DNA of 62,880 nucleotides, filler included, from Atractiella rhizophila (Eukaryota): assembly GCA_021432655.1 (NCBI GenBank). It is 5 parts of 5 records of this genome, joined end to end, with 100 filler letters (N's around TTAATTAATTAA, not from the genome) between each part and the next. Parts side by side here need not be neighbours in the genome. Positions count along the whole stretch, not along the records: positions 25,309 to 55,899 come from MU271327.1; 4 more parts are not named here. The stretch is one strand, 5' to 3'. Position numbers and translations under genes: made by a program. The notes beneath the pieces are model-generated. The model saw nothing but the letters and a program-made list of their open reading frames with translations, did not search any database and was not told where the DNA came from. Below, one piece after another: positions 21,461-61,408 of the stretch. Each line of letters opens with the position of its first letter. Position 1 is the first letter of the stretch.

Positions 21461-24310
21461 TCACTCCTCCATCTTGATGTCGACTTCGGTGTCTTCAAAA
21501 CCCTCGATCCCAAAAACGACGTAATTCCACAGAGCATCCAGGTCCCAGCAATCAACCTTTCTACCTCCTCCGCTCAGTGTACACCCTACATTTCTTGCTC
21601 TTTCGCTGTTGAGAGCCATTGCGTCGGGGGCAAAGGGTGTGTCCAAGCGATACAACCTAGAATTACCCCCAGCACATTTATCAGATCCGTATGCGAACAA
21701 CACTGGATGTCAATAAATCAGTTCTGTCACCGACAAGACGTTGAACATTGGACTGACGCTGATTGCCGTCGTGGTAGAGGAGCATAACCCTTACCCACTT
21801 GTGAAACCATCCCCAATCGACGGGTTGATGTTCTTGTAGAAGAAGATCTTCGGTGGGAAACTCCAAAGGAACGCGACCAGTCGGAAAACTCAGTTCAGAT
21901 TTCCCAGCCCAGAATACCCCTCCGAAGCCCTCCTTAAATTTTTCATCATCGACATAATCAAGAACCATTTCATCTAGCTGCTTTCTCCCATTACCAACCT
22001 TTTCAAGTTCTGCGTTGATCATGTTGACACATGACGTTATGACTGACCACAAACAGTCGAGGATCCCAAACTCCACCACGATTTGATCCGACAGCACCGC
22101 ATCGCAGGGATCGTAAACTTCCTGCTCCTTCAGCTCCGTCCATTTTTCTAGCTTTTCGATCACATCATTTAAGTCATTATCTGTTTCGTCCCAGAATTTA
22201 TCGAACTCTTTGCGTTTCTGCTCATCAAATCCACCAGCTTGCCGCAGATATTTGAGCAGAGAATTGTTGTCGCTTGAATCGAACATTTCATCGAGGTAAG
22301 AACGTATTCGGCTGACAGCAAAGTCTGGACGGATTGTGGTCGGGGCTATATATTCATTGGGGTTGTCAGCCCTGGCGAAAGAGTATCTGAAAAAGGCGAT
22401 TGAGTCCCGATGAAGCTCCATTTCGCGCTTTGCTGCCTTCTCGAGACGTGAAGAGAGAAGAATGAGGAGTTTGCACGTCTGAATACTGGATTCCAGCTTT
22501 TCCAGGTCAAATCTGAATAGTTCGGATTGCTCCAGATCCATCGCAAGGGGAGATTGGAACCTGCCGAAATTTTTACAACAGGACATGGACCATAAGAAAC
22601 GCACCATGTCTGCTCATGTAGAAGTTCTTCGAGAATAATTATCGTCCGTTCCATGGCGGGCGAAAGACACCGGTAACAGAAGGTTATCAATTGCTCTAAT
22701 GTAGTCTGCTTACTAGCCCACCATTGATTGACAGACTGATACCAGAGTCAGATCCAGAAATCCAAAGGGAAAGGAAAACGTGCCCTCTCAGTTGCCTTCG
22801 AAGACATGAAATCTTGAAGAGGGAATGTAAATTTTCCCGTCATAAGTAATTTCATGAATTGTCCCTTGGGAGACAAACTTTCTATCCTTTGATATATTTA
22901 GTTCTTCCCCTTCAAGGGATAAATGAGCGGACCGTCATGACTCCCTGAGACCTTGTGTAATTTTGAGACCCATGCTTCCTTCAATTTCTCTCCATGGGTT
23001 AGACCGTCGATGAGCACACCAAGATTGTCTAAGCATGATTTGAATATCATCGCCAAACTGTCGCACGTCAAGGCCGTCCTTCTCAAACTAAACGGTATGT
23101 CGATTTCCCACTTCGTAATTTTGTTCCTTTTGCCACCTTCTCCCGCAAACTCTGAAAGCAGCGAAATTTCGACGCGTTCTTCGTCTGCTCGTAGTAGGGA
23201 AACTAGCTTGTTTCTCCCTGCACTCTGATCGCTAATGCCTGACACCGCCAACGAACCAACGTGCAAAGCGCCAGCGTAGAGAAGGTGTACGTATTTTGTA
23301 GTTACGACCAGAAGTAAGGTGGAGGGCATAGTGTGGGAAGGAAGNNNNNNNNNNNNNNNNNNNNNNNNNNNNNNNNNNNNNNNNNNNNTTAATTAATTAA
23401 NNNNNNNNNNNNNNNNNNNNNNNNNNNNNNNNNNNNNNNNNNNNACCAAACGTCGTCCGGCCGGATCACTACCTTGTGATGGTAGTTGTATGCTAGGACA
23501 AGCGTATCCTACCATGATTGAGCATCATCAGACACGAGGAGGATACTGATTACCACAAATCCGTTGCTCTGAGGTAGTATTGCTCCGTCTCTATAATCAG
23601 TAGGCGAGACGGAGCACTGAAAGATCTCTGGGACTATCTGATCTGCATTGTCAATGTCTCCGAACTGTGTCTGCTGCAAATGCTGCAGTGGGTTGGAGAC
23701 AGAATCAGCATTAACAGGTTCGGCTAGTTTAGAACAAGGGTGGAAGGTGACAGGCATGACACGCAGAAGTGTTCGGCCCTGGTGATTATTTCAGGAAGCT
23801 TGAGGAGGGTGGCAGTCACCAACGAACGGCCAGAGCCACAGACTATAACGGTGATACAATTGTTGCAATCACTGACCTGACCTCCCAAACACGGGCCTGT
23901 GGATCCTTCTGCAGGGTGCCTGAAATCGGATTCAGGAAGTCAATAACATTCCAACATCTGGACTGATAAGGAAAGGTCTGACGTGCGGTTCACTGTCCTC
24001 ACGACCCTTTGCAAGACAGCAAAGTCCAAACAAATCTCCCTTGTCCAGAAATTGATTTCTAAGCTGTGTGAGATTAGACACACAGGCTTGCCCTCTTTCA
24101 CTTCGCCTTTCGTTTGCTTCGTTTCTAGCATCGCAGGTAATGGTTGAGCTCTATTTTAACTTCGACAGATCATCTATTGCTCACAAGCTCAAAAGCTGCT
24201 AGGGAAAGGCACTCTGGCAAGATCATGCAAACGAAACAACAGTACGTTACTTTTCTGTAAGGTATACATGAGTACGGCAAGCAACGGCATGGAGATCAAG
24301 CTACTTCCGA
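21461..24310 (-). CDS. Anaphase-promoting complex subunit 4-like protein, interrupted by an assembly gap; ends approximate
   Basis: N-terminal SMPLLAVL...VLLFRL, central FMKLLMTG and LSPAMERTIIILEEL resemble the APC4 WD40 and long domains; recalled similarity only. Confidence 0.5.
23345..23444. other. Artificial 100-nt scaffold spacer N44-TTAATTAATTAA-N44 (also 25209-25308, 55900-55999, 61309-61408)
   Basis: The same six-frame-stop linker is centred in four N runs. Confidence 0.95.
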
Positions 24311-25208: not shown

Positions 25209-26433
25209 NNNNNNNNNNNNNNNNNNNNNNNNNNNNNNNNNNNNNNNNNNNNTTAATTAATTAANNNNNNNNNNNNNNNNNNNNNNNNNNNNNNNNNNNN
25301 NNNNNNNNCTTGACATCGTCTCGTAGAGCTCGGACGTCAGAGCGAAGGAAGGAGACATCGCCTTCGATACCTACGAGTCGCAGTGAGGCTTCTTCTTCTT
25401 CCCTTGCATCGCCATTCGAAGTGACGTTGTGCGAGTCGTTTCCCATGCTTCCTACCCTATCTTCTTGTTCTTGTTCTTGTAGCCAAGTAATTCTTTCCAG
25501 TGGTTATCCTAACCTGTATAGCTATCCCACTTCGCTCCTAGCTCCTCTGATGTGGCTCTGGTGTATAGCGTATTGCAGTGATAATCAGCGAGAATAAGGA
25601 AAGCGAGAACAGGCAGGAGAAGGAGAGACGGAAAGCAAAGTCAGAAAGTAATAAAGTCGGGGACGTGCCGCCAGACTCGGAGGTGTGCGCGAGTAACGCA
25701 GGATTTAAGACGCCGAGCGAGGTGGAGACAGCGCCTTTCGTTGTCCCTACAATGGCCATTCTATTACACCACAGCTATCGCGCGTTATCTGCTTAGCTTC
25801 CTTTATCTCGCCTGGTTTGTTGTTGCGGTCCCAAGCCTGAGGGGAACTTTAGATTCGCCGCTTTCTGCCAGCATGAGATAATCATGGCGGCGTTGTGTAT
25901 GGACTCACTGCCGGTGTTGTCGCAGATAAATCAATAATCAATAATCCATTCTTGTGAGGGGCAAGGTAGAAAAGAGGCAAAACACGAATACTGAGCTGGA
26001 ATCATGATATCTCCAACTCCTGATTATGTCCAAATCAAAACCGTGAGCAAATTTACGCTCTCCACACTGGAGTAGTCGCCATCGCCAACACGATACGCAG
26101 GCGGTATCTCCCAACCTACTGCTCCCTCCCCAAAATAACAATCCAACTTCCCCTCCGAATAGCACCCAGACGCCTAGACGCTACCCGCTTTGTTTTATGT
26201 CCATTCAAATTGTATTTATGTCCAGCGACTACCTCACGTCCCTCTGAGTATACCGGGTAAGCGGGATCCGGTCTGTATCCATCGGTCTTCACTTTCGTGG
26301 CTGGTATTGAGAGGACGTTCGAAACACGAACAAGTTTGCTTCCACTTGTCGATTGAATTTGGAATAGATTCCAAGGGAGAGAAGACGAAAGCAGGAAGAG
26401 TGGCAGTGGTGGATCTCTCATCAAAGCCCAAAG

Positions 26434-27861
26434 CTAGAGCCTAGCCTTCTCCCTCTCCTGTTCCTTCCTCTCCTTCTCCCGCCTCCTCCTCTCTTCATTC
26501 CATTTCACCGGATCCACCGCTCCAGGTGGCAACGGGACAGTAGTAGCGACCTGCGATCCAGTGGCCACGAGCACGCTCCTCTTCCTCCACGTCTCCGCTC
26601 CACCATCTTCCTCTCCATCCGTTCCCGCAAACGGATCGCTCCACACTTCCAGCACCTGGTCGTGCACCCCAGCTCGCACCGTCCGGCCGTAGCTGTACAC
26701 GCCAACGCGGGAGGAGGCGGGTAAGGCGCGAAGGGGATAGGTGAATGAGATGCTGAGGAGGAGTGTCGCGAACCAGGAGGGTTGGAGGTTTCGAACTATT
26801 TTTGATGGTGTCTGAGTTGGGACACATGGTGTGTCAGTGCCTGACATCCGCAAAAGGAAGGAAAGGAAGAGAGAAGAAACGCACGTTGTGTGTTAAGTCG
26901 CAAATTACGCTATTGTAGCCCTTAGTCAGCCCATACCTCAAAGAGAGAGAGAGATGTACTTACGGCACGACATGTTCAGTCACCTTCTCCCCTTCCTCCA
27001 GCACGACCCAAGCACCAAACTCCGTCCCCTTCGTCAAACTGTCCTGCACATTCACTTCCTCCTGTACCACCTTCTCACCCGGTGGATTATTCTCATCGAG
27101 CTCATAAAAGGTCAGTCGACGCTTGAAATTGTACATGGGATGCGTGATGGTTTTCGTCACTTGCGAGGGATGGATTTTGAGCGGCATTGGGGGAGAATAG
27201 GTGGGGAAAGGAGGCGTCGGAGGGCCGTATGGTGGAGAGGGGGACGGGAGGAGGGTGAAAAGGAGGGTGGAGGGGAGTAACATGATTCCCTGTTGGTAGT
27301 ACAGGTCAACTCATGCTCATTCACGGTATGAAAAGAAACAGGGATGGGGATGAAATAAAGAAGAAAGCAGCGAAAGAAAGATGCTTACTTCCTGCCACAT
27401 CCCTCCTTCCAACCAACACATCTTTCCCGTCTTCCTCACCACCTTCAACCGTACCTCTACCTTGCTCTCCACGCCCTTTTTGATTTTCCCAGGCTTCAGA
27501 AAAGTGCCTGTCAAATGCAATGGATCGGGAGTAGACGTTGAAGCCATGAAGGAGAGTGCGGCTGAAAGGATGAGCGAGAGGAGGTAGCCTCCAGACGGAT
27601 TACTGTTCCATCAACCTCCTCAGTCAATACATTCAATTCAAGTTGTGGATAGATTCAAGAAATGGTTGGGTGAGCAAGGGGAGAAGGGACCAACATAGCC
27701 ACTGTCCATTCAGGATCCAAGACCGCATCATAAACCACCTCATCCCCTTCCTTCCTCTCTTCACCTTTCCCTCCAAAATTTGTAGATGTAGAACTCTCGG
27801 AATGCACATTTGGAGTGTTGCAGGAGAGCGAAACGCGCAAGGCGGATGAGAGTGGTGCCAT
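26434..27861 (-). CDS. Thioesterase-like (double hotdog fold) protein, multi-exon
   Basis: YDAVLDPEWTVA, PSGGYLLSLIL, TPDPLHLTGTFLKPG, WFATLLLSISF, VGVYSYG...EVWS, LVATGSQVA. Confidence 0.75.
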
Positions 27862-28496
27862 CCTTCACATTCGACTCTTCACCGTTTCTTGCAAAGTTGC
27901 GTTGCAACTGAACAGTGCTGGAAGAGGCAGCTTGAGAAGAGGCAGCTTGAGGAGAGGAGAGTCAGGAGGAGATGGTGGTTTAAGCAGGACTCTATTCCCG
28001 GCAACCTCACGGGTACATTCTCACTAAGGAAGCGGCATTTTGCTTGAATATAATAAATAAACAGCTTCGCGCCAATCGTGCCCTGATCTTCTTCAGCTAG
28101 CTCACTGCACCCTGTGGTTGTCGTTGTCGAATTCAGCAGTCTCACGCCATCCTCGGATAGACTCCGGCTACGTACAGCCGGAGAGAAGAGGTCAACGTGG
28201 GCATGGTGGTTGGCGTACGACATCGAAGGTGCCTTCCATCATCAGACTGGAGGGAGAAAGCTGGAATGGTATGTCATCGACATGTGCTTTGACGACCGGC
28301 TTGAAAAACCGGAGGAGTTATGTTATGGAGAGGACTCAAAGGGAAGGAGGCAACAAGACAGAGGGGCATTTTCGAAAGACATGGATTTTGGTGGGCGTAG
28401 AAGGCATAACATACTCTCTGCACAATGTCAACACAACCATCAAACGTGTAACCGACGTCGAAACGTAAGTAGGTAGTATCCGATCGAGGAAAGGAA

Positions 28497-29280
28497 CTAC
28501 AGCCTTCGTCCTCTTCGTCCACCCTATCCAGCCAAGCAACTCATCAGCCAACATGTCCATCTCCATCCCCTTCACTTGCACTTCCAGGAAAAGTTCAGGG
28601 ACAGGAGAAAGAGAAAGAACGAACCTTCCTCCTCGTGCTATCCGTCGGGATAGGCGTGACATCCTCAATCCTCCCAATCTTCATTCCCGCCCTCGCCAAA
28701 GCCCTGAGAGCGCTCTGTGCTCCAGGTCCTGGCGTCTTCGTACCCGTTCCTCCCGTCGCTCGGATCTTAATGTGTAGTGCGGTTACGCCGAGTTCCTTGC
28801 ACCGAGCAGCTACATCTTGAGAAGCCAACATGGCGGCGTAGGGAGACCTGTTCCATTTGGAGGACACCAGTCAGAGGCGAGAAGTTGCGAGAGAGAGGTT
28901 GAGGTGTGGTGAGAGGAGAGATGGGAGAAAGGGAGAAGGCATACGATTCGTCCCTGTCCGCCTTTACTTTCATTCCGCCTATCCCACACAAGAACCATCA
29001 ATACCAGTCCACTCCACATATCCACCCCCAATGTTTCGTATTTCTGAGTGGAAGACGCACCGGTAACCCTGGAGATAGTTTCCTTCCCGCTCAAATCGGT
29101 GACATGCACAAAGGTATCATTGAAGCTCGCAAAGATGTGAGCGACGCCGAACACCAGCTCGCCCTCTTTGACTTGAGGACCGAGAGAGACGACCTCTTCG
29201 GGCTTTGCGACTCGCTTTCCTTTAGGGGGCTACTTGCACTGTCAGGAGGACTCTGCTGAGCAGAATGGGAGACTGACCAT
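28497..29280 (-). CDS. RPS14: 40S ribosomal protein S14 (uS11), copy 1
   Basis: [68 protein letters not shown]; 4 introns, first coding exon is ATG only. Confidence 0.96.
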
Positions 29281-30951
29281 GATGAAGGGTGGGATGGAGA
29301 AGTCGATCGGATGGACACGGGAAACAAATAACAAAAGCCTCGAGTTGAGAGGAAGGCTGAACCGTAGTCCATAGTCCTGTTTGTAATCTCGCCTCGTGTC
29401 ATAATGAGGTCTCGTGACGTCAATCCGAATTGACCTTTCTCTCCACAAATTGACCTTAGAATTTCCTCAACCACAGCCTTTTCCACGTTTCCGCCTACAA
29501 AGCTATACTCTGAGGTCGCTCGCTATTCGCCAGCTACAAGAACAGCGTTCTCAGATCACACCTGCACTTGGCACTGGAATTGGGAACAGCAGAAATGGCA
29601 TCGGCAGCCTTACCACCACCGTCACCAATGATTTTGCCGTCCGTGGTCGACGCTGGGAGCGCTGGAGGCAATGGAGAGAATGTAGAGTACGGACAGGGGA
29701 AGAAAGAAGGTAAGCGATCTCCTAATGCCTTGTTTGGAGAAATGTCGGCTCGCGAACTTTGCAGATTCGGGGTTGCTTTGAGCTTGTTCTTGTTTGAGAG
29801 AGCATTGGAATAAAGAAGACTGGCGTCCTGAGCTTAGACTCGACATTTCAGCTTGATATTGTGCTTGGTGTATGCAGGAGCTATGTTCAGATGCAACATG
29901 TCGTCATGCGTCACCAGCAAATCCATATCTACAACGTGGTGTCCGCATCCTGTATAACAAGAGGACGTCAAGTCAGAGAACATTTCTGTCTTTGCAATAT
30001 ATGGTACCTAGTTGTGTGCCTTTACAAACTCAAGTTGATCGCCATTGGACTATGTTCCACCTTTCATTCCTTATGAAGGATGTTTGTTAGAGATAGCGAA
30101 AGTTCAAGACTTTGTCTCTTTACCAGGCAGTACTTTTTGCGCCGGCTAAGTGACAAGTTGACATTATCGTCATGCACTTGCTTCCCGAGATTGTCGTGGA
30201 GAGATTTTGTACCAACTTGTGTGGGCTTATGAAGAAGCATATGGAGTCAGAGTCTTCTCTTTACCAGGTCGTGCGCTTTTGGAAAGCTTTACTGAAGAAG
30301 CGAAGGGAGTGTACGAAGGTCTCGCTTCCAGAATTTTTGACGTCGGTAATGTCATTGAGCTGATGACGACTCCCTCTCCGCAAAAGATATTATTGGATTT
30401 CTTCGTTGGTCACTGACTTTCCTCCATGAATGCAGGGATCCGCGCCCGTCGTCACCGCAAACGCACCTCTGAGCTCGCCTCTTCCACTCCTTCTACTTCC
30501 ACCTCCGCGCAACCCACAACACCTCAAACACTCCTCAACATGGCCTACGCCCTCCATCTCAGCATCCAGGGTTGTCGTTGTCGAATTCAGCAGTCTCACG
30601 CCATCCTCGGATAGACTCCGGCTAGGTTGCAGCCGGAGAGAAGAGGTCAACGTGGGCATGGTGGTTGGCGTACGACATCGAAGGTGCCTTCCATCATCAG
30701 ACTGGAGGGAGAAAGCTGGAATGGTATGTCATCGACATGTGCTTTGACGACCGGCTTGAAAAACCGGAGGAGTTATGTTATGGAGAGGACTCAAAGGGAA
30801 GGAGGCAACAAGACAGAGGGGCATTTTCGAAAGACATGGATTTTGGTGGGCGTAGAAGGCATAACATACTCTCTGCACAATGTCAACACAACCATCAAAC
30901 GTGTAACCGACGTCGAAACGTAAGTAGGTAGTATCCGATCGAGGAAAGGAA

Positions 30952-31735
30952 CTACAGCCTTCGTCCTCTTCGTCCACCCTATCCAGCCAAGCAACTCATC
31001 AGCCAACATGTCCATCTCCATCCCCTTCACTTGCACTTCCAGGAAAAGTTCAGGGACAGGAGAAAGAGAAAGAACGAACCTTCCTCCTCGTGCTATCCGT
31101 CGGGATAGGCGTGACATCCTCAATCCTCCCAATCTTCATTCCCGCCCTCGCCAAAGCCCTGAGAGCGCTCTGTGCTCCAGGTCCTGGCGTCTTCGTACCC
31201 GTTCCTCCCGTCGCTCGGATCTTAATGTGTAGTGCGGTTACGCCGAGTTCCTTGCACCGAGCAGCTACATCTTGAGAAGCCAACATGGCTGCGTAGGGAG
31301 ACCTGTTCCATTTGGAGAACACAAGTCAGAGGCGAGAAGTTGCGAGAGAGAGGCTGAGATGTCGTAACAGGAGAGATGGGAGAAAGGGAGAAGGCATACG
31401 ATTCGTCCCTGTCCGCCTTTACTTTCATTCCGCCTATCCCACACAAGAACCATCAATACCAGTCCACTCCACATATCCACCCCCAATGTTTCGTATTTCT
31501 GAGTGGAAGACGCACCGGTAACCCTGGAGATAGTTTCCTTCCCGCTCAAATCGGTGACATGCACAAAGGTATCATTGAAGCTCGCAAAGATGTGAGCGAC
31601 GCCGAACACCAGCTCGCCCTCTTTGACTTGAGGACCGAGAGAGACGACCTCTTCGGGCTTTGCGACTCGCTTTCCTTTAGGGGGCTACTTGCACTGTCAG
31701 GAGGACTCTGCTGAGCAGAATGGGAGACTGACCAT
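30952..31735 (-). CDS. RPS14: 40S ribosomal protein S14 (uS11), copy 2
   Basis: Same exon structure and protein as copy 1; differences in intron 3 and one synonymous Ala codon. Confidence 0.95.
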
Positions 31736-34737: not shown

Positions 34738-36439
34738 TCAACCACTCTTCGCTTTCTCAGCCGCCTCTGCCGCCTCACGCTCACGGTGCCACTACAAATT
34801 GATTAGCGAATCAAATATGGGAGAATAAGGTGAGCACTGACGGCCATGGTAATCTTGACCGCTTCCTCCATCGTTACCAATGGTTCATAACCAAGGAACA
34901 ACCTCGCCTGCACATCATCATTAGCCTAGCAAGAGGAAAGGAATAGGAGAAAGAAGCGCACCTTCTCAATGTTGAAATACCGATCGACAGTCATATAAGT
35001 GGCCGTCGCTCTTGTCAACGGCGCAGGCTGTCCCTTCAACCAACTCGCAACCTCTCCTCCCGCTCCAATAAACCAACTCAGGAATGCGGGAACGGCCGTG
35101 ATTTTCTTTGGGGAGAAACCATTGTAGGCCTTCCACAAGCTCCTAGCGAAATCCCAAAAGTAGATTGGCTCTCCATTGGTGATGAAGTAGACTTGACCAG
35201 CGATGGGAATTGGAGCATCGGGTTCGGGATAGTAAAGGTCAAGGGAGGCTGGGTGGAATTGATCGAACCTGTTCCGCGAGGAGGGCAGCGGGGGATCGAT
35301 GGGGAAAGAGGATGAGAGGGCTTGAGATACAGTGTAGGAAGGCGGTGGAAGTGTTTGAGAATTCTCGTTCACAAGCGTAAAATCGTGGCTTTCGCTATCG
35401 GAGGATTGATCAACGCCTTCCACCGTCCTTGAGTTGGGCATAGGACGTCTTTCCCATCCGATGTCAATGTCTTTTGAGCGCTCATCGAAGATGGACCAGT
35501 CCGTGATATACTTGTCCAGCTTCTCCATGGCGAGTAGATGGCCATGGACGAGGTTGTCAACGAAGGTAAAATCTTGAAGATTATCATTGGAGCCGATCTG
35601 GAAGCCGGTTTGCCCATTGTGGAGCGCCTGAAGTATGCGATAGGACACTTGACGGTCTCCAGGTCTAATACCTCATGAGCTACGAGAACTGGACAGATGC
35701 TGAGACATACCCAAAAATGCCGGACGGACGAATAGCGCAAGTCAACAAGCCATCTTTTCCGTTTGCAGCGATGACGGCTTGCTCGGCCAAAGCCTTGAAA
35801 TGGACGTCAGTGAGAACACAGGGGATTACGACAATGTTCGAATTTTGAACAAAAGGCGGAAATGTACACGATCTAGAGAAGATAATCTAAGGATTACCCT
35901 CGAATCTGTTCAACACGTACGTGGCTGACCAATTCGCAATCGTGGATCTGAAAGGAGATTTGGGAGAAATTCTGCTCTCAAATCTTTCAAAGCGTATAAC
36001 CCCCAAGAGAACTTGTAAGAGGAAATGTGGCACAACTTTAGTTCTGAGCTGGAATACAACGATACGCCTTCAGATAAAAGCTTTGAAAGACATTATTTGA
36101 ATGATTCCGAACATCCAACCAAACGTAGTCACACGAAGTTGGAAGAGAGAGGCATCTCAAGCATTCTGCAGCTTGTTTTATTGTGTGATTGAACAATCTC
36201 GCTCAACCTTCGATCTAGAGAAGGCAAGTTGATTGCAAATCAATACAATATCTTGAGTTGTCCATAACTTCTCAGGTACCTTCGCGAAGTATTCGGTACC
36301 ACAGTGTAGGATGGCACTTGAGCCCCGTTCACAGGTCAACGGCCCGCCTGCACATACGATGTACAATAAAGATCAAGCGGTCACCAACTGTAAACTTTTT
36401 GGGTAGAGCAAGACAATTCTACAAGATGGTAAGTGTAAA

Positions 36440-36480
<41 letters not shown>

Positions 36481-37943
36481 ATCCAACCAAACGTGACTAC
36501 ACGAAGTTAGAAGAGAGAGGCATCTCAAGCATTCTGCAGCCTGTTTTATTGTGTGATTGAACAATCTCGCTCAACCTTCGATCTAGAGAAGGCGAGATGA
36601 TTGCAAATCAATACAATATCTTGAGTAGTCCATAACTTCTCAGCTACTTTCCCAAAGTAATCGGCACCACAGCGTACGATGGCACTTGAGCAACGTTCAC
36701 CAGCTCAAAGGCGCGCCTGCACGTATGAGGTACAATAAAGATCAAGTGCCGACCAACTGTCAACTAGTTAGGACAGAGCAAGCCAACTCTGCAAAATGGG
36801 AAGTGTAAACGACTCTCAGCCCAGAGCTGAACATTAGACCACGGCGGGCGAGATCCATGCTCCTTGAGTTCTTGAGGTCAAACACAAGCTCATGTTCATC
36901 TGAATCAAGGGACCAAACTTGAACTGTTCAAGTGTTGCAGTCAACGATGACTTTTGGATGAACATTGTGCTTTTCTGAAGATTGAAAGCTGTGTTATCAG
37001 CTTTAGATCCAAGGCAATATGCGCCGAAGCTACAGTCATGTACTAAATAATGATGATGCCAACACTCCATGACAACTCAGTCAACAATTGTCAAATTGCT
37101 TCTGCTCAAACTCAAGAACCCAACATGAAATCACTAAGGACACAACTCTGGTCTCGCGTTCTTTCCAGTATTGCACTCATAAGGGAGAAAGAGAAAGGAG
37201 CTCAGTTTCCTCCACAATTTCATTTGAAATATTCAATCCTCAATGACACCTAAAATTGATCACATGCAGGACTCCTCACGTTGAAGGTTACGGTGGCCAA
37301 AAATGGCTGTCAGACAACATTATTTGTGCCTGTCCAAGTAAATAATGCGTGCAAAGGTACGCCATTTTGAACGTACTATGGACGGGGACGAAAAGTAAGA
37401 AAAGATTCTGAACTTCACACATCTCTCTCTCTCTTTCTCTCGCCTTCAGATACTAGACACTAGACGTACCTTTGTCCTGTTATAATCATCCGGCCAAGCA
37501 TCCGGATAGGGAACCCTCTCGTCCACATTCCTCAACCCCACCCCAGAATCCAACACCTCATTCCCCAACACGACCCCACTCGAGCTCGTATACACAAACT
37601 TCCTAGCCCCACGCTTCACACACCAAGCGATAGTATGTTCCGTCCCCTTCACATTCACAGCGTCGCAAATCTCCTTTCCGCTAGCCAGGTGCGGAGAAGC
37701 GGTATGGAACACGACGTTGGGGTGCGGATCGAGTTTGAGGTCTTCGAAGGGCTGGGTCAGGTCCAGTTTGTGGTATGTGCACCGAGGAGGAAGCGGACTC
37801 GTCGCTGGCGCGGGGAAGAGGTCGAGGGAGTAGATGGTCGCTGTGCGGTAGCGGGAGGAGAGCGCCTTGAGCAGGTTTCCGCCGAGGAACCCGCTGCCGC
37901 CGATGACGGCGTAGACTTCGGGTGGAGAGGGGTTGTAGGGCAT
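34738..37943 (-). CDS. ERG26: C-3 sterol dehydrogenase/decarboxylase (3-beta-HSD family) with a 1676-nt intron at 35794-37469
   Basis: VIGGSGFLG, VFHTASP, VNVKGT, VYTSSSGVV, YNRTK|ALAEQ, AIRPSGIFGPGD, DFTFVDNLVHGHLLA, YFITNGEP. Confidence 0.9.
36110..36810 (+). repeat. Two ~330-bp direct repeats (36110-36440, ~36478-36810) separated by A39
   Basis: Both units start aacatccaaccaaacgt and end aagtgtaaac; the A tract spans 36441-36479. Confidence 0.9.
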
Positions 37944-39028
37944 CGTCCTGAGTGGAAGAGGGCGACTTGGAGTGGCTCAAATACTGGCTCAAATACGTGG
38001 CTGGCGGAGCGAAGCAACAATCCTCAGGATGCTGGATGCATCAACCAGCTTCAACTAAGCTTCGAATGAGAAGGTCTGTTGATCTTGTTAATTCGTGTAG
38101 CAAGTTCCTGAGCAAGGTCGGGCAACGTAGCTGGTGTAGAACAGGTTGAAATAAGACCATTAATGCAATGGAGGCATTTATAAAGGTGTTTCGAAAGAAA
38201 GAACATGCTTGTGCCCAATTCACTCGGTTGCGACAAGGGGTACCCCAGTTCAGTATAAACACGTTGGTAGTATCAAAGATATGGAATGCTGTTCTCTAAC
38301 TCTATGGTTAGTTTACATGATAATGTTGACGGAAAAGCATAATACTGCTCTAAAACGAGTTATCACGTGTTTTGTAGCAACATCTCATCTCCCACACTAC
38401 GAATGGAGGAGAAGGCGTCTAAAGCTGAGAGGAAGGAGCTTACCATATAAGGGGAGAGAGGCAGCTACGTTTATCTACAAAGTTAGGCAACTGATGCGAC
38501 AGAGCTTTCCAAGACCATTATCTAAACCCATTGTAAATCACTGCCTAAAAGAACAAATGATTCTTTTAACTCTCTCCGTTATTGTTCCATCAGTGAAGAA
38601 CAATACACGAGACAAAGCCGACCTTGTCACAGAATATATTTGCAGTCCGCTTTGGTACGCTATTTCATGGCCCTTGGATCACTCCAACTTGGAGGTATCG
38701 ACACTTACGATTTGAGGACAGATGCTAGATTCTGTCGCGCTATAAAGTGTGTCTACTGTCTGCCTTTAATCAACAGCGCCTAAGCACGCCCGGAAAGCGA
38801 GGTGCTCAAACTCTGCTAATGCCTGTTTGACAACATGCGAATAATATTTGCTAAAGTACAATTTCTCGAACAATGGGCTTTAGGGCTCTGCTAGGATTTA
38901 TGCCAATATTTAAACCCGAATACCGAATGCCTCAGTATGGTCAACATGTTAACATGTCTTGAATTGCCCTATTATTACGGTTTGTCATAATTGCACCCAG
39001 AACAAATCAAAGTGCTTACCTCCGCCTT

Positions 39029-39930
39029 TCAATGTTTCCCTCCAGTTTTACCTCCCCTCACCGCCCTCGGCCTCCCCCCTTTCTCTCCGCTCCTTCTCGT
39101 GCCCATCCCATGAATAGATCCTCGTCCTATAGAACCGTTAGAGCCGCTTCCCCTCCTCGGATTCGATCCAGGAATCGTGGACAAGATGTCGTTGCTCTCC
39201 CCTCGGAGACGACGAGCCAGGAGGATATCTTTTGGCATTACTGTGACGCGTTTCGCATGGACGGCACATAACTGTACCGCATGATGATGGGTCACCATGT
39301 GCGAGAGTGTCACGGCGACTGCCTCAATAGGGAGAACTCACATTCGCGTCACTGAACAAGTCGACCAAATATTGTTCAGCCGATACCTTCCTCACACCAA
39401 AGGAACAGGGTGGTCTTCATACAAGCTCTATTCAGGGAGGAAGAAGATGGAGACAGACCTGCAATGCGTCCATTGCAGACACTTGGAAACGGATGTCGGG
39501 CTTGAATTCGGTCGCTATCTCTCTAACGAGTCTTTGGAACTACATCCGCCCACCAAAAGGTGTTGAGCCCATCAAAACCTCCACTCTAGTTAGCAGAGAG
39601 AAGGGATGAGGAGGACGCACGGGAAGTTTCCTGATCAGGAAATCTGTGCTTCCCTGGTATTTCCTGATCTCCCTCAACGCTACAGTTCCGGGTCTATAAC
39701 GGCGATGCTTCGAACCAGCCTCTGTTCCATCGAATTTCTTCAGCAACATGTATCCCTTCACTGGTAGAAGGGAGCAAGCAAAGGATACGGCGCACCCTTT
39801 TTGTTTGTTTGACTCAGTTTCTTGTCCGTTTTGATTGGGATATATTTTCTTGCTTGTTGCTGGCAGCAGAATGTCGGACCTTTTCGACGTTGGGAAAAAT
39901 GAGAGAACACAGTACTTTGGTGCGTGCCAT
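39029..39930 (-). CDS. Divergent histone H3 variant with RG-rich C-terminal extension, 6 exons
   Basis: Spliced product [127 protein letters not shown] plus extension. Confidence 0.88.
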
Positions 39931-39999
39931 GCTGGAACTTCTAAACCTGGCGAATCAGGTTCATGTATTGAGACTTGAAGATATAACTGGAAGAGGATG

Positions 40000-42055
40000 T
40001 AACCAGGAGGTGAAGGCAGCGAGAGGGGAAGGCTAACAGACGGAAAGCTCAGGAATTGCTTCTCAGGAGTTTGTAGTGAAAGTAGTTCACGAGCTNNNNN
40101 NNNNNNNNNNNNNNNNNNNNCTCAGGACTACTTATGTTAGCATGTTAGCATGTGAGTCTACTTCCTGGCGGACAAGCGTAACATGAAGTAAGGCGAGTGA
40201 GCAACGCGTAAGTTCGCTTGTTCGCGAACATGCAGAGGTAGGAACGGGCGAACGTTCCGGCGTTCTTCGCTGGTACCTTTGTCCGCTAATCTTTCCTCTT
40301 CACGTTAGGTTGCACGAGACTCCAAGTAACGATGGCATATAGCTAGCTCTAGGAAGGAAGGGAATTCACGCTGATAGCTTGAAGTGCGGCGACGTAGGTT
40401 CCCGGGAACGAGGCAAAATGTTCAGTTTTGTTTATAAATTCTGAACCCCTCCGAACGTAGTGCTTGGGACGAAAGGCGTATAGGGCAAGCAGTCATACTA
40501 ACGACAAAGGGGAACGCTCAGAACGGCGAGACGCGTTCACTTCACATACGCGCGATTAGTTCGATGAAGGACACTTGCTACACGGTTGTTGCCGAACCTG
40601 ACGCTTCAACAGATAGTGGACAGCTGGAAGGGTTTTAACTCGCGCCGAAGGAAAGTATGTTTTGGCTTCGTGGAGGTGTTTTCCACCCAACAGTCTAAGG
40701 TAGAGGAAGACCTTCGCTAGCACAGGACTGGCAACTGGAAGGGGCGACACGGGAGCACAACGTCTACCTTTGACCGTGTTGAAGGAGTCTACTTAATATG
40801 TAGCAGCGCAGTTGAACCTCGGCTGCACCCCTCTGACTTCTTGTTCGCTGCAGCGCTAGGGCTTCTTCTAAAGAGGAGAGGGCAGCGGGGAGCTATTTTG
40901 TAACGTTAGGTTCAACAGCTTATGGCGAGCTAACATGGAGCGGTAGCAAAACGACCTCGCAAACGAAGCTTTACTTCGTGGCAAGAGCATGCTGCTATTG
41001 GACAGCTCGAGTCTCGTCTTCGACTTCAAACTCTTTGTAGATGACGTTCCAAGCAGAAGAATATGTGCCCAGTCTAAGGACTTGATTACGCTGTTTGTCT
41101 GCAGCGCGGTGAACGTAAGCTTGTTATAATGAGCTTGCTCTATTTCTGTCACCCTATGCGCGAAGTTTGCCTTTTACCTCCACTCGGATTTCGAACAATG
41201 GGAGTATTCTACGCATCCTGAATGCTTCCGCATCTAGACCGAATAAATGTGGTATAGACAACCTTAGACCAAACGAGGTTTGAGACACCCGGGATTTAAT
41301 GTAGGACTACTTTTCCGGTAACAACTGGCTGAGACGTCCTATAACACGCTAGTTATGGAACCGCCCAAAACGGACGGTTGCGAAATAGGAGTGCCCTTCC
41401 TGTTCCCTCTGCTCTTAGAAGTAATGAATTTGATAATCTCAGTACGGAGAGGAGCAGGAGCAGGTGAGGCCTTCCGTTGAAAGCTGTTGAATAGGTAGTA
41501 GGAAGTCGAGTGTGTACGTAAATAACTAGTTAACGGAGCCGGCCTGCAAACCTTTCGCTACGAGCTTGACCGAGACCTTGTAAAACCACGCGAAACCGCC
41601 TCTTCACATTGGCTCGCTCTCACCGACTCTTTCGCTGTTGAACGGGTAAACTAACATTCAGAGTAAGGACAGGAACCGTTTGTCCGAGTACGATTAACAC
41701 CGGGTTCGCTGCTGACAGATTGAGAATGTGGACAGCTAAACCACCGAGGGAGACGACATGCAGGTGTAAGAGTTTGTCCGGGGTAATAGGATTTGCCTAC
41801 AAATCAAGCCTCTTTGTAATGTTTGCTAAGGAGGGTGTTCTCCCGTCGTACCTAACAGCAGAGAAGTGTCTATAGTGTAAAATAAGATGTAATTAATGCC
41901 TCCGCCGGCTTCTAGAGTGTCGGTAGCTGCCTGTGGAGGTCACGTGCTCTGTGGTCGATACCCGGCTTAGATGGAAAACTGCGCAACTTTTCTTTCAGCT
42001 GCGCACTGCATAAAACTCATAAAACGGACAATATGAAAAGCTGAACTTTTACTGA
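40000..42055. other. Mirror-oriented (reversed, not complemented) segment flanking a 25-N gap; left edge approximate
   Basis: Gene-like only when complemented without reversal; 40064-40095 is the exact reverse of 42056-42087. Confidence 0.88.
40496..41860. CDS. Zn(II)2Cys6 transcription factor readable only in the left-to-right complement; 3' end approximate
   Basis: Complement from 40496 reads MIAVSP-CESC-RSAQVK-C-MRANQATS-CERC-ANNGLD-C (CX2CX6CX8CX2CX6C), followed by GT...CTRAY...AG introns. Confidence 0.8.
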
Positions 42056-43202
42056 TCGAGCACTTGATGAAAGTGATGTTTGAGGACCTGACCGAACAAG
42101 CCAAGAAAGAACTGCTTGATTGTGTTGAAGTCACACCGATTTACACCTCCTCCTTGTCTCACTATGCAATAGCTGTCAACCAGCCGCAATTTAAATAAAG
42201 CATCAACTTCTAATGAACTTCACCCGCCAAACCGACGCCGCCGTTCCGTTGCCACTTCCTAGAATGGCAGGCGGCATTTCGGGAAGTAGAGTGGCGACGT
42301 AAGCAGCCTCTGAAATCCCATCGCTCGAACCAATTCAAACCAGAGTCTCTGAGCGGTCATATTTTGAACGGCATCGAGAAAAAGCGGGCAAGGAAAAGGT
42401 TCCGAAAGTTTGCATTGGTGCAACGCCGTTCCAACAGCACACACCTGAGGCTGATAATGAGTTGTAAATGCGAAGGTATCTGCGATGGATGCTGTCACCT
42501 TGGTACCTCGGATCATAATCCATGCAGTTGTGTAGTATACAGGTAGTACGCGTAGTAAAGATACATAACCCCGAAAACGCTGAAGAATCAGTCTGTCTGC
42601 TATCATGTTATCTTCGAGTTCAGCGCGCAAGTTGCAACAGCTGGAAATGCGGAAGCATCCCATTGTAGAACCGATATCACATCAAATCTTACATATTGTG
42701 GATGGAGAGAGCGCTTTGCAGAAATGCTCCTCACGTCGCCTTCAGGGAGAAGAGCACTATAGAGCGCTAAGGACTGCGTGTTGACATGATACTCACCTGA
42801 GTTTCCAGTGGACCTGCATCGAACCTGCTAAACTTGAAGTTTTGACATTTGGCCGAATCTCCAAATAAAATGCTGCGAACATGGCCCAGGTCTTCGTGTC
42901 TTCGTTGACATGCCTGTACTGTACGAGTCCAATCTTCACGCTCATAGAGGCAACTCAAGGGGGCGAGTAATCCCACCTGAGGGGACATTCTCCACCGTGC
43001 TCCGTTTCCGAATTCTGAGCCACAGCTCCACTATGTAACTAACTACTCAGATTTCCACACCGCGATCCCCACCACGCAAGAGGAGGTGGAGGGGCTGCCA
43101 ATTTGGGCATATAAAAGGTGGCACTTCATCAAATCAATCGCCTACTGTCCCTTTCTTCATCTCAAGCAAACTATTGACACCAAGTACATCATTGCACTCA
43201 AA

Positions 43203-44914
43203 ATGGCAAGTGATAAGAAGAAGATGCCTTATGGTTCGAGATATTTCCTGTATGATGTACTTGTGCTAAGGATGATCCACAGTGAGATTGGGGAATTCTG
43301 GATTGAAGGTTTCAAAAGTATGTGGACTCTCGTCTGAAACCTAAGAGCGTCGTTGACGATAGATGTGCTTAGATCATCTTAGGTTGCATGAGCTATGGTA
43401 TGCTCTCCTCCCCTTCTCTGAAAAGGGTTATAACTCCCTTTCCAGGTAGTCCCGAGTGGCAGGACTGGGTGTTGGGAGAGGAAGAGGGGATCAAGCACAT
43501 CAAGGCTGCTTATGAGCTGGGGATCAACACGTTCGAGTGAGTTCATTTCTGGTTGTCCCTCTCTATGATGGAACATGACTTCGCTTTCTAGTACCGCCAA
43601 CGGTTCGTTCCCGATTTTTAATTGGGGATCGCTGCTGAAAGCACCTGGGGTTAGTCTATTCTTCCGGTCTCTCGGAAGTCGTTCTGGGAAACGCGATCGA
43701 GCAGTTGAAGTTACCGAGAGAGAAGATCGTGGTCATGACGAAGGTTCTTCTCACTCTTCCGTTTACGAAACCGTTTCTGATCGAGTAACAGGTATACTCT
43801 ACAGTTCATGACGAACCAGGGAAGAATGTTATGGCAACTTGTCCTGGAAACCCCGACGATTGGGGCTATGTCAAGTACGCGTCCTTCCGTTCCCTTGCTT
43901 TCTCCATTTCATGAACCAATTTGGGTATAGTCAACACGGTTTGAGCCGAAAGCATATTTTTGCCAGTGTGCAAGCATCCTTGAAGCGTTTGAAGCTGGAC
44001 TACATCGACTTGCTGCAATGTCCGTCTGTGCTTCACGCCATCTTCGAACAGCTAAAGACTTTTTGTGGTAAAAGGCCATAGGTTCGACTATGAAACGCCA
44101 ATCGAAGAAACGATGCAAGCTTGCATGATGTGGTCCAGAAAGGATGGGTGCGATACATTGGGATGGTGCGCTTTATCACTTTAACCCCCCGCGTTTCACA
44201 ATCTAACTATCTGAGTATGAATCTACCAGTCCTCCTGCCATGCCTATCAGTTCCATGCCATGCAGAACTATGCCATTTCGAAAAACCTTACTCCTTTCAT
44301 CAGCATGCAGAACCATTATTCGGCTATCTATCGTGAGGAAGAAAGGGAGATGATGCCCACTCTGAAGATGTATGGTGTTGGCTGTATTCCCTGGAGTCCA
44401 CTGGGTACGTTCGTCACACCCTCGCTTCCGTCCCGCTGAAGCTCGCGATAACATGACGCTCTGGGACGTAGGTCGAGGTCTCCTCACGCGACCTTGGGCC
44501 CAAAACAAAACCACGGAAAGAGGAAAGTCGGATAAGTTCCTCAGCCTCATGGTGAAAGATGCTACCGGAGAAAGCGACGAGAAGATCGTGAGTGCGGTAG
44601 AACAGGTGGCAAAGAAGAAAGGCGTGTCCATGGCGCAGGTATGGTTTCCTTGCCATCATCAACCCAGATGGAATTTGGCTGACAGAAAGGTAGATTGCAA
44701 TCGCCTACTTGTTGCACAAGCCTGGAGTTACAGCTCCAATCTTTGGGACGACAAAGCTTGAGAGCGTGTACGAGCTCGCCGCAGCTGTCAACATTACCTT
44801 GGATGAGGCTGACATTAAAGCGTAAGCTGTTTCTCATCTTTCAGATAACTTCGTTAATTCTCGGATAGAATCGATGAGCCATATACTCCAAGAGATGTCT
44901 TTGGGCACACTTGA
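43203..44914 (+). CDS. Aldo-keto reductase (aryl-alcohol dehydrogenase-like), many introns
   Basis: RLGNSGLKVS, LGCMSYG, GINTFDTANVYS, GLSRKHIFASV..SLKRL.LDYIDLLQ, RYIGMSS, MQNHYS, PWSPLGRG. Confidence 0.92.
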
Positions 44915-53580: not shown

Positions 53581-55999
53581 GGTTCCCTTGTTAAGAAGGT
53601 AAGAGACATGTCAGTAACCTACTAATAATCCATGTAATATTGGAAAAGGTGCCTACCGCATCACTCATGAGCGGTTGGGGAGAAAATTGGGGCGAGTACA
53701 AGAAAAGATGTTGGTGGTTCTGAGGTCGTGAGAGGTTGATGACTTTTAACGATGATGACAAGGTCGGGCTTTGCATCTCCCAACTTTCCTCTAACCTGGG
53801 ATTATACTCTCTGCCCATATTCGTGTGTCTTCTTCCTGCGGTTCTCTTCCCTTTTCTTGCAAACTTGTTCGTGAAGCAATCCCTGGGATTTTACCTCGCT
53901 AGTTGTCGACTTTTCACAGGATTTGGGCTAATTTCTGGGGCAAAAGAGATAAATGCAATCCAAGGTCGGCCTAAATCATTCACTTATCGAAGCAAGCTTT
54001 CGCAGTCGCAGGGCAACGATCTGATATCTCGCAAGTTGAAATTCGGAACGCGGTTGAGCGAGAGGCAAAGATTGTCTCTAACCGTCTCCTCGCCTTGTCA
54101 TCACAAATAGGGCACGCGTTCTCTCCCACGCTGCCTTCCTGCCGCTTCAATCTCTTTCCAACCCAATTTCCTCCGCCCACGTCCGTCACACAGGAATTCT
54201 TCTTCATTAATCCGATTGATCCCCACCGAATTAAGTCAGGCCCGTACGGATCAGACAGGTGTGGGTCTCGCACGTTCCTCGCTCAGTGCCGTTGGCACAT
54301 TGAGGACTTAGAAACCATCCCGACAGAAGGTATTGACCTCCGCATGGGCACAAAGTGGATACAGTTGGGACCTCGCGTTCTCTCGGAGAAGCGGCGGGAC
54401 GAGAGCATTGCAACTTGAGAGGGTCGGCGACGAGCGGGATGATGAACGGCTCGGTAGGGTTGAAGATTCTACCGGATTTGTTGTTGCTGTCAATTGGAGG
54501 CTTGCCGCAGTAGGATATGATAATANNNNNNNNNNNNNNNNNNNNNNNNNNNNNNNNNNNNNNNNNNNNNNNNNNNNNNNNNNNNNNNNNNNNNNNNNNN
54601 NNNNNNNNNNNNNNNNNNNNNNNNNNNNNNNNNNNNNNNNNNNNNNNNNNNNNNNNNNNNNNNNNNNNNNNNNNNNNNNNNNNNNNNNNNNNNNNNNNNN
54701 NNNNNNNNNNNNNNNNNNNNNNNNNNNNNNNNNNNNNNNNNNNNNNNNNNNNNNNNNNNNNNNNNNNNNNNNNNNNNNNNNNNNNNNNNNNNNNNNNNNN
54801 NNNNNNNNNNNNNNNNNNNNNNNNNNNNNNNNNNNNNNNNNNNNNNNNNNNNNNNNNNNNNNNNNNNNNNNNNNNNNNNNNNNNNNNNNNNNNNNNNNNN
54901 NNNNNNNNNNNNNNNNNNNNNNNNNNNNNNNNNNNNNNNNNNNNNNNNNNNNNNNNNNNNNNNNNNNNNNNNNNNNNNNNNNNNNNNNNNNNNNNNNNNN
55001 NNNNNNNNNNNNNNNNNNNNNNNNNNNNNNNNNNNNNNNNNNNNNNNNNNNNNNNNNNNNNNNNNNNNNNNNNNNNNNNNGATCAACAGACAACACACAG
55101 TGAAGGAACACTTTGACAACTGGCTTCCAAGGTTGCAGCGGCCAGATTGAACAATCAATAGATCATTTGAACGCGGTTAACAGCGCAAAGTTATGACAAG
55201 AATGTTCTGGACTTGTTGAGGGCATGTTGCTCCATGCAATCCTAACAGTATTGATGACGGAGTTCCGCCTACGGTTTGAGGGAAACGTCAAAGAAACAAC
55301 GGACGGGACTTTTCATGACTTTTAAAGTCAACGCCCGCATTCATTTGCTGTACCTTCCTTACATGCACTTCCTCCATGTTAGCGCTTCTGGCTCTGCCAT
55401 GAAAAACGTGTTGACCGGCTTCCCGCTCCTGAAGTCGTGCTGCAAAAGAAGAGAAGTATGCATGCACAGTGATGCATGCAAAAACTGGCATGGACACGAA
55501 CGCGACGACATTATTCAAAATACTGTTTACGCGGCTCCGATTCCCGTCCGCTCTGCTGCGGGAAAACAGCGCAGGAAACAGCATATGTGATCCAATGATT
55601 AGATATCAATATTAGTTCATCAATATTAGTTCAATATTGATCAATTTCCACGGCTGAATGTTAGGTGGTAAATATTGCACCAACCTCAAATCTTCTCGAT
55701 AGATAATATGGCCATATTTTGGCGCGGCGTTATAATCGAGCGCACAACAAGGAGAACGTTTCAAAACTCAGGTATACTGCACACGGTACCCTTCGTGACC
55801 TTGAATTTCTTGCGTTCTGGATTGGTTTTGAGCGAATTCGTCGATCCAGCGAAAGACTTCATGATGCCACTGTAAGGAGTTCTTCGGGTTGAGGACCTGN
55901 NNNNNNNNNNNNNNNNNNNNNNNNNNNNNNNNNNNNNNNNNNNTTAATTAATTAANNNNNNNNNNNNNNNNNNNNNNNNNNNNNNNNNNNNNNNNNNNN

Positions 56000-59362: not shown

Positions 59363-61408
59363 CTTTACCTATACCTTCTGGCACTTTCTCTGACAAACGC
59401 CGGTTGGGAGGGGAAGGAGAGCCTGAGACGCAACTTGAAAGAGGATGGGGAGGACATTATAAGACATTTCTGTGATTCTCAAGCACCGGTGGAGTGGCTG
59501 TCGAGCAGCGTGTGCCAATTGACTGAAAGGTCTTGACTCTGGAGATTGCTTCTCTTCCAATCAATCGAATCCCATCCTCCGACGCGGGTATCTTATCTCA
59601 TGCGCTGGCAATATCGCGCCGTCTCGCGTTTATCGTGTGCCTTCTTCAGTTGGAGTACTTAGGTTTCAACAGCCAAGAGATGTCGAAAGCAAGGTTTCGT
59701 CCTTTTGTCACCTTTTGTAAACGCGTAACTTGTCTCAATTGAAAGCCAAGGACGATAAGAATCTGGTGGGAACGGCAAATCGCGCAGTCGCGGAGCGGGG
59801 GAAGGCAAACTGTAGTCTCGCAATTAAACATTTGCACGTGGTGTGGCACATCCCGTGACTCTATAATAGAAATGTTGCACAAAACTGGGTAGAGCAGAGA
59901 CATAGCAGAGCGTTGGGATGTGCATTGTGAGACTGATGAGCCCTCATAACGTTGTTCTGAGTGCTGGTTACTACCTTGAATTGTCAACCGGCGTGCTCAG
60001 CAGCCAACCCGAGGTTTGAATACGAGGACAGGATTTAACCGCATTGCTCCCCGAGAGGAGGCTCTCCCACCGAGGATATGTCCATTCATGTCAAAAAATA
60101 TCTACTTCGTCTGCGATAGAAACGCGGGTGATTTTCACCATATCGTAAACCCGCTGATAACGGGATCCCTCTCTCCTCCTCTTCACTCGCAAAATGAAAT
60201 GAAAAGACGAAGTAGGGCTTGTTCCCCTTCTCTCCACTACATTTGTAAGTGGGTTCATTTGAGTTGGGATCGCTCTCGCTATCACCTCACTCTTAGGAGC
60301 TTTCATCGCTCCTTCCAATTCCACTCCAAGCTTTTCTTCTTTCCTGTCACAAGACGACTTGATAAGCTTAATCTCCTAGTTCACCCCGCTGCATTGCAGT
60401 ATTCCAAAGTGTTCACACGGAACGAGGGACCGTTCAGGTGTTCGTGATGTATTACTTCTCTCCGCCTCCTTCAAACACTTTGGGAGGCATCCAAGGAGCT
60501 TGGAAGTGGATATAAAGAGAGCAAAGGAAAGAAGACGTATTCATGACAGCGAGCCTCAGCGTCTAGTGATGACCATCCTGATGAACCAGAACAACGGCAG
60601 AACAGTAACGTTGTAGTAGTGCACCTGGAAGACAAAGATACTGGGTCTTTGATACTCTGTCCTTCACTCTGGGTAAAGCAGTCGTTCCTCAATCAATACG
60701 AAGCCAAGTTTTCCTCTCGTCGATAGGAAGAAGTCAACGGAAAATTAGAAAATGGTAGATGAGACTTCCATCCTTTTATGCCGAGGACGAATACTTTCAC
60801 TGCATATTGGTTGCACAATCTAGAATGGATGGTGGCAAATACAGACTTCTAAGTCAATCAATAATGAGGAGAACAACTTTGCTCTGTCTCCTGCTTCGTT
60901 TTGTCTACAATGGCTTACTGGAACAGAAAAAGCAATGCACTGAGACAGAAAATTGTTTTAGATTCATTGTTTTCGCATATTGCAAGTGCACAAACTATTA
61001 TCTGATCCGCAATCCACGTCTATTGCGACAACCAAAACACATTTCAATTCCTGTCTGATGATTTAGTCTTGAAAATTGGAGTTTAACCCTTCTGTGCGCC
61101 TCTCTCAGGCGAGTTGACTGCTTACAAATTCTAACATACTTCTCAGAAGCTGGGTGGATAGATGATTGAAATCCCTGAACACATGTTTTATATATGTTGG
61201 ACAGTCATATCCCTGACGCGTAATTTAGACATTTGCTCGGGACGTACCACATCAACTAACTCAGCAACTCTCCTATACTTCAGTCCACACTTTCATTGCA
61301 CTTCCCTCNNNNNNNNNNNNNNNNNNNNNNNNNNNNNNNNNNNNNNNNNNNNTTAATTAATTAANNNNNNNNNNNNNNNNNNNNNNNNNNNNNNNNNNNN
61401 NNNNNNNN

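Follow-up and report, generated by a model that had tools for sequence, protein, structure and literature searches.

Does a stretch of about 2 kb beside a cenH3-like histone gene exist in the genome with its letters in the order in which the record gives them? The original prediction took positions 40000 to 42055 of the window (the whole stretch of 62,880 nt analyzed here) to be DNA that reads as fungal sequence only when complemented without reversal, placed around a 25-N gap. Complementing without inversion is equivalent to reversing without complementing, and natural DNA is asymmetric under letter reversal.

Letter order and anatomy of the segment

Letter order was evaluated with a polarity score, in which a strand-symmetric k-mer model compares each 500-nt interval as written and with its letters reversed. 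Its training data came from the remainder of the window, leaving out the suspect region and each 2-kb block. For k = 5, the 239 intervals outside the segment had a mean score of +37.2 (standard deviation of 17.1, minimum of -5.4), and only four of them fell below zero. Inside 40000 to 42100, the mean was -32.1 and the maximum -12.2, with all seven intervals negative; all 239 outside intervals scored above the highest value inside. Every inside interval thereby lay about 4 standard deviations below the window mean. Models with k = 4 and k = 6 gave a picture matching that of k = 5. The cumulative score changed direction at approximately 40064 and 41989, and flipped polarity was found nowhere else in the window, the flanks of the other gaps and the linker blocks included.

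The edges of the reversed stretch coincide with assembly bookkeeping, on the left a 25-N run, on the right 32 nt copied in reverse from the left flank. The features are as follows (X1 and X2 are two public sequencing runs of one sample, described below).

40064 to 40095, plus strand: left anchor, the final 32 bases of normal DNA ahead of the gap; X1 and X2 contigs align up to 40095
40096 to 40120, no strand: 25-N placeholder, the sole 25-N run in the window
40121 to 42055, no strand: 1,935-nt gap fill in reversed letter order; the true plus strand runs from 42055 down to 40121
42056 to 42087, no strand: the left anchor repeated in reverse, identical to 40064 to 40095 at 32 of 32 letters when read backwards
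42088 to 42700, plus strand: right flank, normal DNA with a positive polarity score; its neighbor on the left in the real locus is the base written at 40121
23345 to 23444, 25209 to 25308, 55900 to 55999 and 61309 to 61408: linker blocks of 100 nt each, 44 N + TTAATTAATTAA + 44 N

These data confirm that 40121 to 42087 carries its letters in reversed order, uncomplemented. The exact reversed copy of the anchor at 42056 to 42087 implies that the inserted string is the left anchor plus the fill, written backwards: it started with a copy of 40064 to 40095 (32 nt), continued with the 1,935-nt fill and was inserted, in reverse, after the 25 N and ahead of the right flank. The duplicate at 42056 to 42087 is redundant, and the real locus has no copy at this place. 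It consists of the flank up to 40095, the letters from 42055 down to 40121, and the flank from 42088 onward, so that the corrected locus is gap-free and 57 nt shorter than written. The extent originally proposed was therefore right as to the reversed part but needs shifting at both ends, since 40000 to 40095 is normal DNA covered by contigs and the right end lies 32 nt further, at 42087. Likewise, the 25-N run is indeed the only one of its size, but it borders the reversed stretch on the left and is not within it.

In total, the window has 10 runs of N. Apart from the 25-N run, eight of them belong to the four linker blocks, in pairs of 44 N, and one has 555 N (54526 to 55080), with DNA of normal polarity on either side. 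The linker blocks are all-frame stop linkers of the type used for stitching contigs into a pseudomolecule. The window was therefore stitched from separate contigs, and adjacent pieces may not be neighbors in the genome. The 12-letter linker TTAATTAATTAA itself was absent from the papers listed by a literature search.

Contigs from public runs across the two joins

We searched public sequencing runs using 40121 to 43860 as the query. X1 and X2 contained 0.42 of the 373 words sampled from this interval, of which normal DNA (42088 to 43860) makes up only 47%. No RNA runs were among those found with this query. The contigs of X1 and X2, taken from the Logan assemblies, were compared with positions 39000 to 43000 of the window. 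In both runs, the match stops at 40095 and restarts at 42087, and what the contigs carry beyond these points is the fill in un-reversed order, seen at its two ends only, over 21 to 30 letters each. On the left, the first 21 of the 30 letters behind 40095 are all identical to the segment read leftwards from 42055; over the whole overhang, X2 agrees at 27 of 30 letters and X1 at 22 of 30, with X1 diverging from the fill after 21 letters. On the right, the last 24 of 24 letters before 42087 are identical to the left end of the segment once that is reversed, and 28 of 30 agree when one copy of an 8-nt tandem repeat is omitted. The overhang behind 40095 passes straight into the un-reversed fill with no gap, and the 25-N run at 40096 to 40120 is a spurious "unclosed gap", with nothing in its place in the real locus. 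In the depth table for the locus as written, no X1 or X2 contig covers 40206 to 42081, an observation that we did not count as evidence.

The flank contigs (39000 to 40095 and 42087 to 42600) fall into two classes: some are identical to the window, and the others differ from it by 7 to 10% and have small indels. This suggests two diverged haplotypes, as in a dikaryon or a very heterozygous strain, and the mismatches further into the overhangs would then come from the second haplotype. X1 and X2 may represent the sample from which the assembly itself was made, and their independence is from the finishing pipeline only, not from the organism.

These overhangs bear directly on whether the DNA exists as written, that is, as a mirror or "swinger" copy from a polymerase systematically exchanging A with T and C with G without inversion. 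We know of no templated polymerase that makes reversed, uncomplemented copies. Under the name of swinger DNA, Seligmann has described GenBank stretches that follow the A<->T plus C<->G rule, for instance within the 16S rDNA of the Kamimuria wangi mitogenome, and reads them as products of an unusual polymerase state (PMC4942731, as far as the accessible part of that article goes). The present segment fits this pattern with its sharp switches: judged by their printed description, the swinger entries are likewise sharply bounded within an otherwise regular record and match genes only after complementing without inversion (PMC4942731). What sets the present segment apart from those entries, as described in print, is the reversed anchor, the N placeholder and the contigs, all of which point to software. 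The contig overhangs on both sides carry un-reversed letters, and the segment opens at an N placeholder and closes with a reversed copy of the flank anchor, leaving the swinger reading with a negligible probability. The original prediction had added that the segment would be unprecedented if reads supported its written form. The contigs make this conditional moot, and similar database stretches are, at least by the accessible text, already in print (PMC4942731).

Reading frames and a putative gene in the fill

As had been noted from the sequence, neither strand of the segment gives a recognizable gene as written. The longest stop-free frame on either strand has 101 aa, and a Pfam search with the eight as-written open reading frames (ORFs) of at least 60 aa gave no match at an E value of ≤1 for any of them. 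With its letters reversed, the 1,935-nt stretch contains ORFs of 211, 151, 149 and 120 aa, and the three longest ORFs sum to 511 aa reversed versus 256 aa as written. The reversed three-ORF sum exceeded the written one in two of 29 equally sized control tiles, none of which reached 211 or 511 aa. A codon-usage log-odds score, for which 21 long ORFs of the window served as the training set, failed to distinguish the reversed ORFs from the as-written ones. The longest reversed ORF (211 aa) and the cysteine motif described next are on opposite strands.

As a side observation, the two exceptional control tiles are located in 27091 to 30960 (424 aa reversed versus 383 aa written and 404 versus 360 aa, respectively). 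Their k-mer polarity is normal, and the region is probably gene-poor.

The complement of the segment read from left to right contains, at written positions 40514 to 40603, the motif C-x2-C-x6-C-x8-C-x2-C-x6-C. This was its single match across the 12 frames of the window (six as written and six reversed), and it appeared in none of 100 shuffles of the window and none of 5,000 shuffles of the segment. The Zn(II)2Cys6 family (PF00172) has the spacing C-x2-C-x6-C-x5-12-C-x2-C-x6-8-C, and the motif is probably of this fungal binuclear-cluster type (Gal4 type; Pfam PF00172, Zn_clus). A start codon is found at written 40496 to 40498, with the motif six residues downstream, and this reading continues with more ORF blocks up to approximately 41890 to 41990, together with candidate GT..AG introns. 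The resulting feature is the following.

40496 to 41988, complement read left to right (minus strand of the real locus): putative Zn(II)2Cys6 transcription-factor gene, in ORF blocks

Both intron-like signals originally quoted for this reading were recovered, GTACGT..AACAG at 40229 to 40283 and, with a CTAAT branch, an acceptor whose last base is 41099. Trial gene models with relaxed splice rules predicted proteins of 312 to 327 aa with five to six GT..AG introns, weak donors and a stop at 41894 or 41988, while a model with strict splice sites ended at 107 aa. Neither kind of model is trustworthy, and the exon-intron structure is tentative. Judging from the motif, the ORFs and their context, the fill probably encodes a Zn(II)2Cys6 transcription factor. 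It shares with fungal factors of this family (PF00172) the six-cysteine spacing soon after the start codon and a fungal genome.

Could this instead be genuine gene-poor or foreign DNA of normal polarity, in which the reversed ORFs and the cysteine motif arose by chance? Two of the 29 control tiles also have slightly longer ORFs when reversed, and codon usage fails to tell the reversed ORFs from the written ones, both of which such a reading would accommodate. It would not accommodate a polarity some 4 standard deviations below the window mean in every inside interval, a motif absent from all 5,000 shuffles, a reversed anchor copy matching at 32 of 32 letters or the contig overhangs, and we consider coincidence to be out of the question for practical purposes.

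To the left of the locus lies a gene for a cenH3-like variant of histone H3 (39019 to 39800, minus strand), identified by a Pfam Histone match. In run X3, from a related organism, a spliced contig leaves out 39272 to 39341, 39385 to 39456 and 39540 to 39620, three short introns that are GT..AG on the minus strand. In the corrected locus, the 3' end of the putative gene is just upstream of this cenH3-like gene. Further left are exons of a 3beta-hydroxysteroid dehydrogenase (3beta-HSD). All six matches of the 3beta-HSD exon are named for Agaricomycete fungi, at 35 to 38% identity, and four of the six are ERG26 or C-3 sterol dehydrogenases. These matches and the short GT..AG introns of the cenH3-like gene show that the host is a fungus, one without close sequenced relatives in the database searched. 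To the right of the locus there is an aldo/keto-reductase fragment, a weak match under the curated cutoff.

The 3beta-HSD/ERG26-like gene (34929 to 37976, minus strand) has its two exons 1.8 kb apart, with a long A-run between them at approximately 36400 to 36500, which gives a lysine run in one frame. The space between the exons may be a large intron, an insertion or a misjoin.

Metagenomes were also scanned for relatives of this neighborhood. The 3beta-HSD exon found none among 213 pattern matches, and the cenH3-like exon found two loci among 409 matches. A local tblastx comparison of the corrected segment with these two loci gave a best E value of 0.048, which does not improve on the as-written control (0.078), and the Zn2Cys6 motif was absent from both loci.

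Origin of the reversed string and its consequences

A reversed, uncomplemented copy of a neighboring flank can be produced by nothing other than a string operation on a flank-anchored fill. Together with the abutting 25 N and the contig overhangs, the anchor copy bears out the original attribution to gap-filling software, with the segment reversed as the true locus. We conclude that the reversed stretch is almost certainly a finishing or gap-closing artifact and not a property of the DNA. The four linker blocks, as other script-made joins in the same window, were counted in favor of a software origin.

The following course of events would account for the features. The scaffold would originally have been gapped between 40095 and 42088. 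A gap closer may then have built a string that opened with the 32 left-flank bases next to the gap and went on for 1,935 nt, spanning the gap completely as far as the right flank, and this string would have been written by the wrong operation, reversed without being complemented. An equivalent error, which would leave the same letters, is an opposite-strand extension from the right flank that was complemented without reversing. The backwards string would have been joined to the right flank, and its overlap with the left flank would have been unrecognizable because the string ran backwards, so that the program may have left a minimal placeholder of 25 N.

Gap closers are known to leave placeholder gaps. 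In PBJelly, a gap that is filled in part keeps 25 N, and the placeholder here likewise consists of exactly 25 N beside inserted fill. A PBJelly-type tool may be a candidate. The source on the PBJelly utilities gives 25 N only as the default minimum gap size (PMC6240028).

The reversal might also have arisen after the public record was made, during later handling of the data, and not in the gap closer of the submitters. The stage at which the letters were reversed is not itself observed, which leaves room for such an origin. However, a 32-nt flank anchor with an adjacent 25-N placeholder is what gap closing on scaffold flanks would leave, and not what a file operation on an arbitrary interval would produce, and we regard later handling as very unlikely. 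If the error belongs to the gap-closing step, that step could have reversed the fills of further 25-N gaps as well, in this assembly and in others from the same pipeline. Such a systematic error is a serious possibility, although we lean slightly against it.

Among the matches listed for literature on sequence "reversed but not complemented", none was visibly about assembly errors, judging by the entries as listed. The case described here shows a software route to such stretches. Database miners who look for sequences complemented without inversion could take the segment for biology, and the reversed flank anchor is a clean marker by which errors of this class can be diagnosed. The polarity score, in turn, is a cheap screen that can be applied genome-wide.

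For the organism, there is no mirror DNA at this locus, and its biological interest is low in that respect, but the record is worth correcting, being 57 nt too long as written and containing a false gap. Any annotation of this assembly will lack a gene that lies beside the centromeric histone gene and probably encodes a Zn2Cys6 regulator. If the error is systematic, there would be a set of real genes in public records that are invisible to annotation, and a k-mer polarity scan would find them all.
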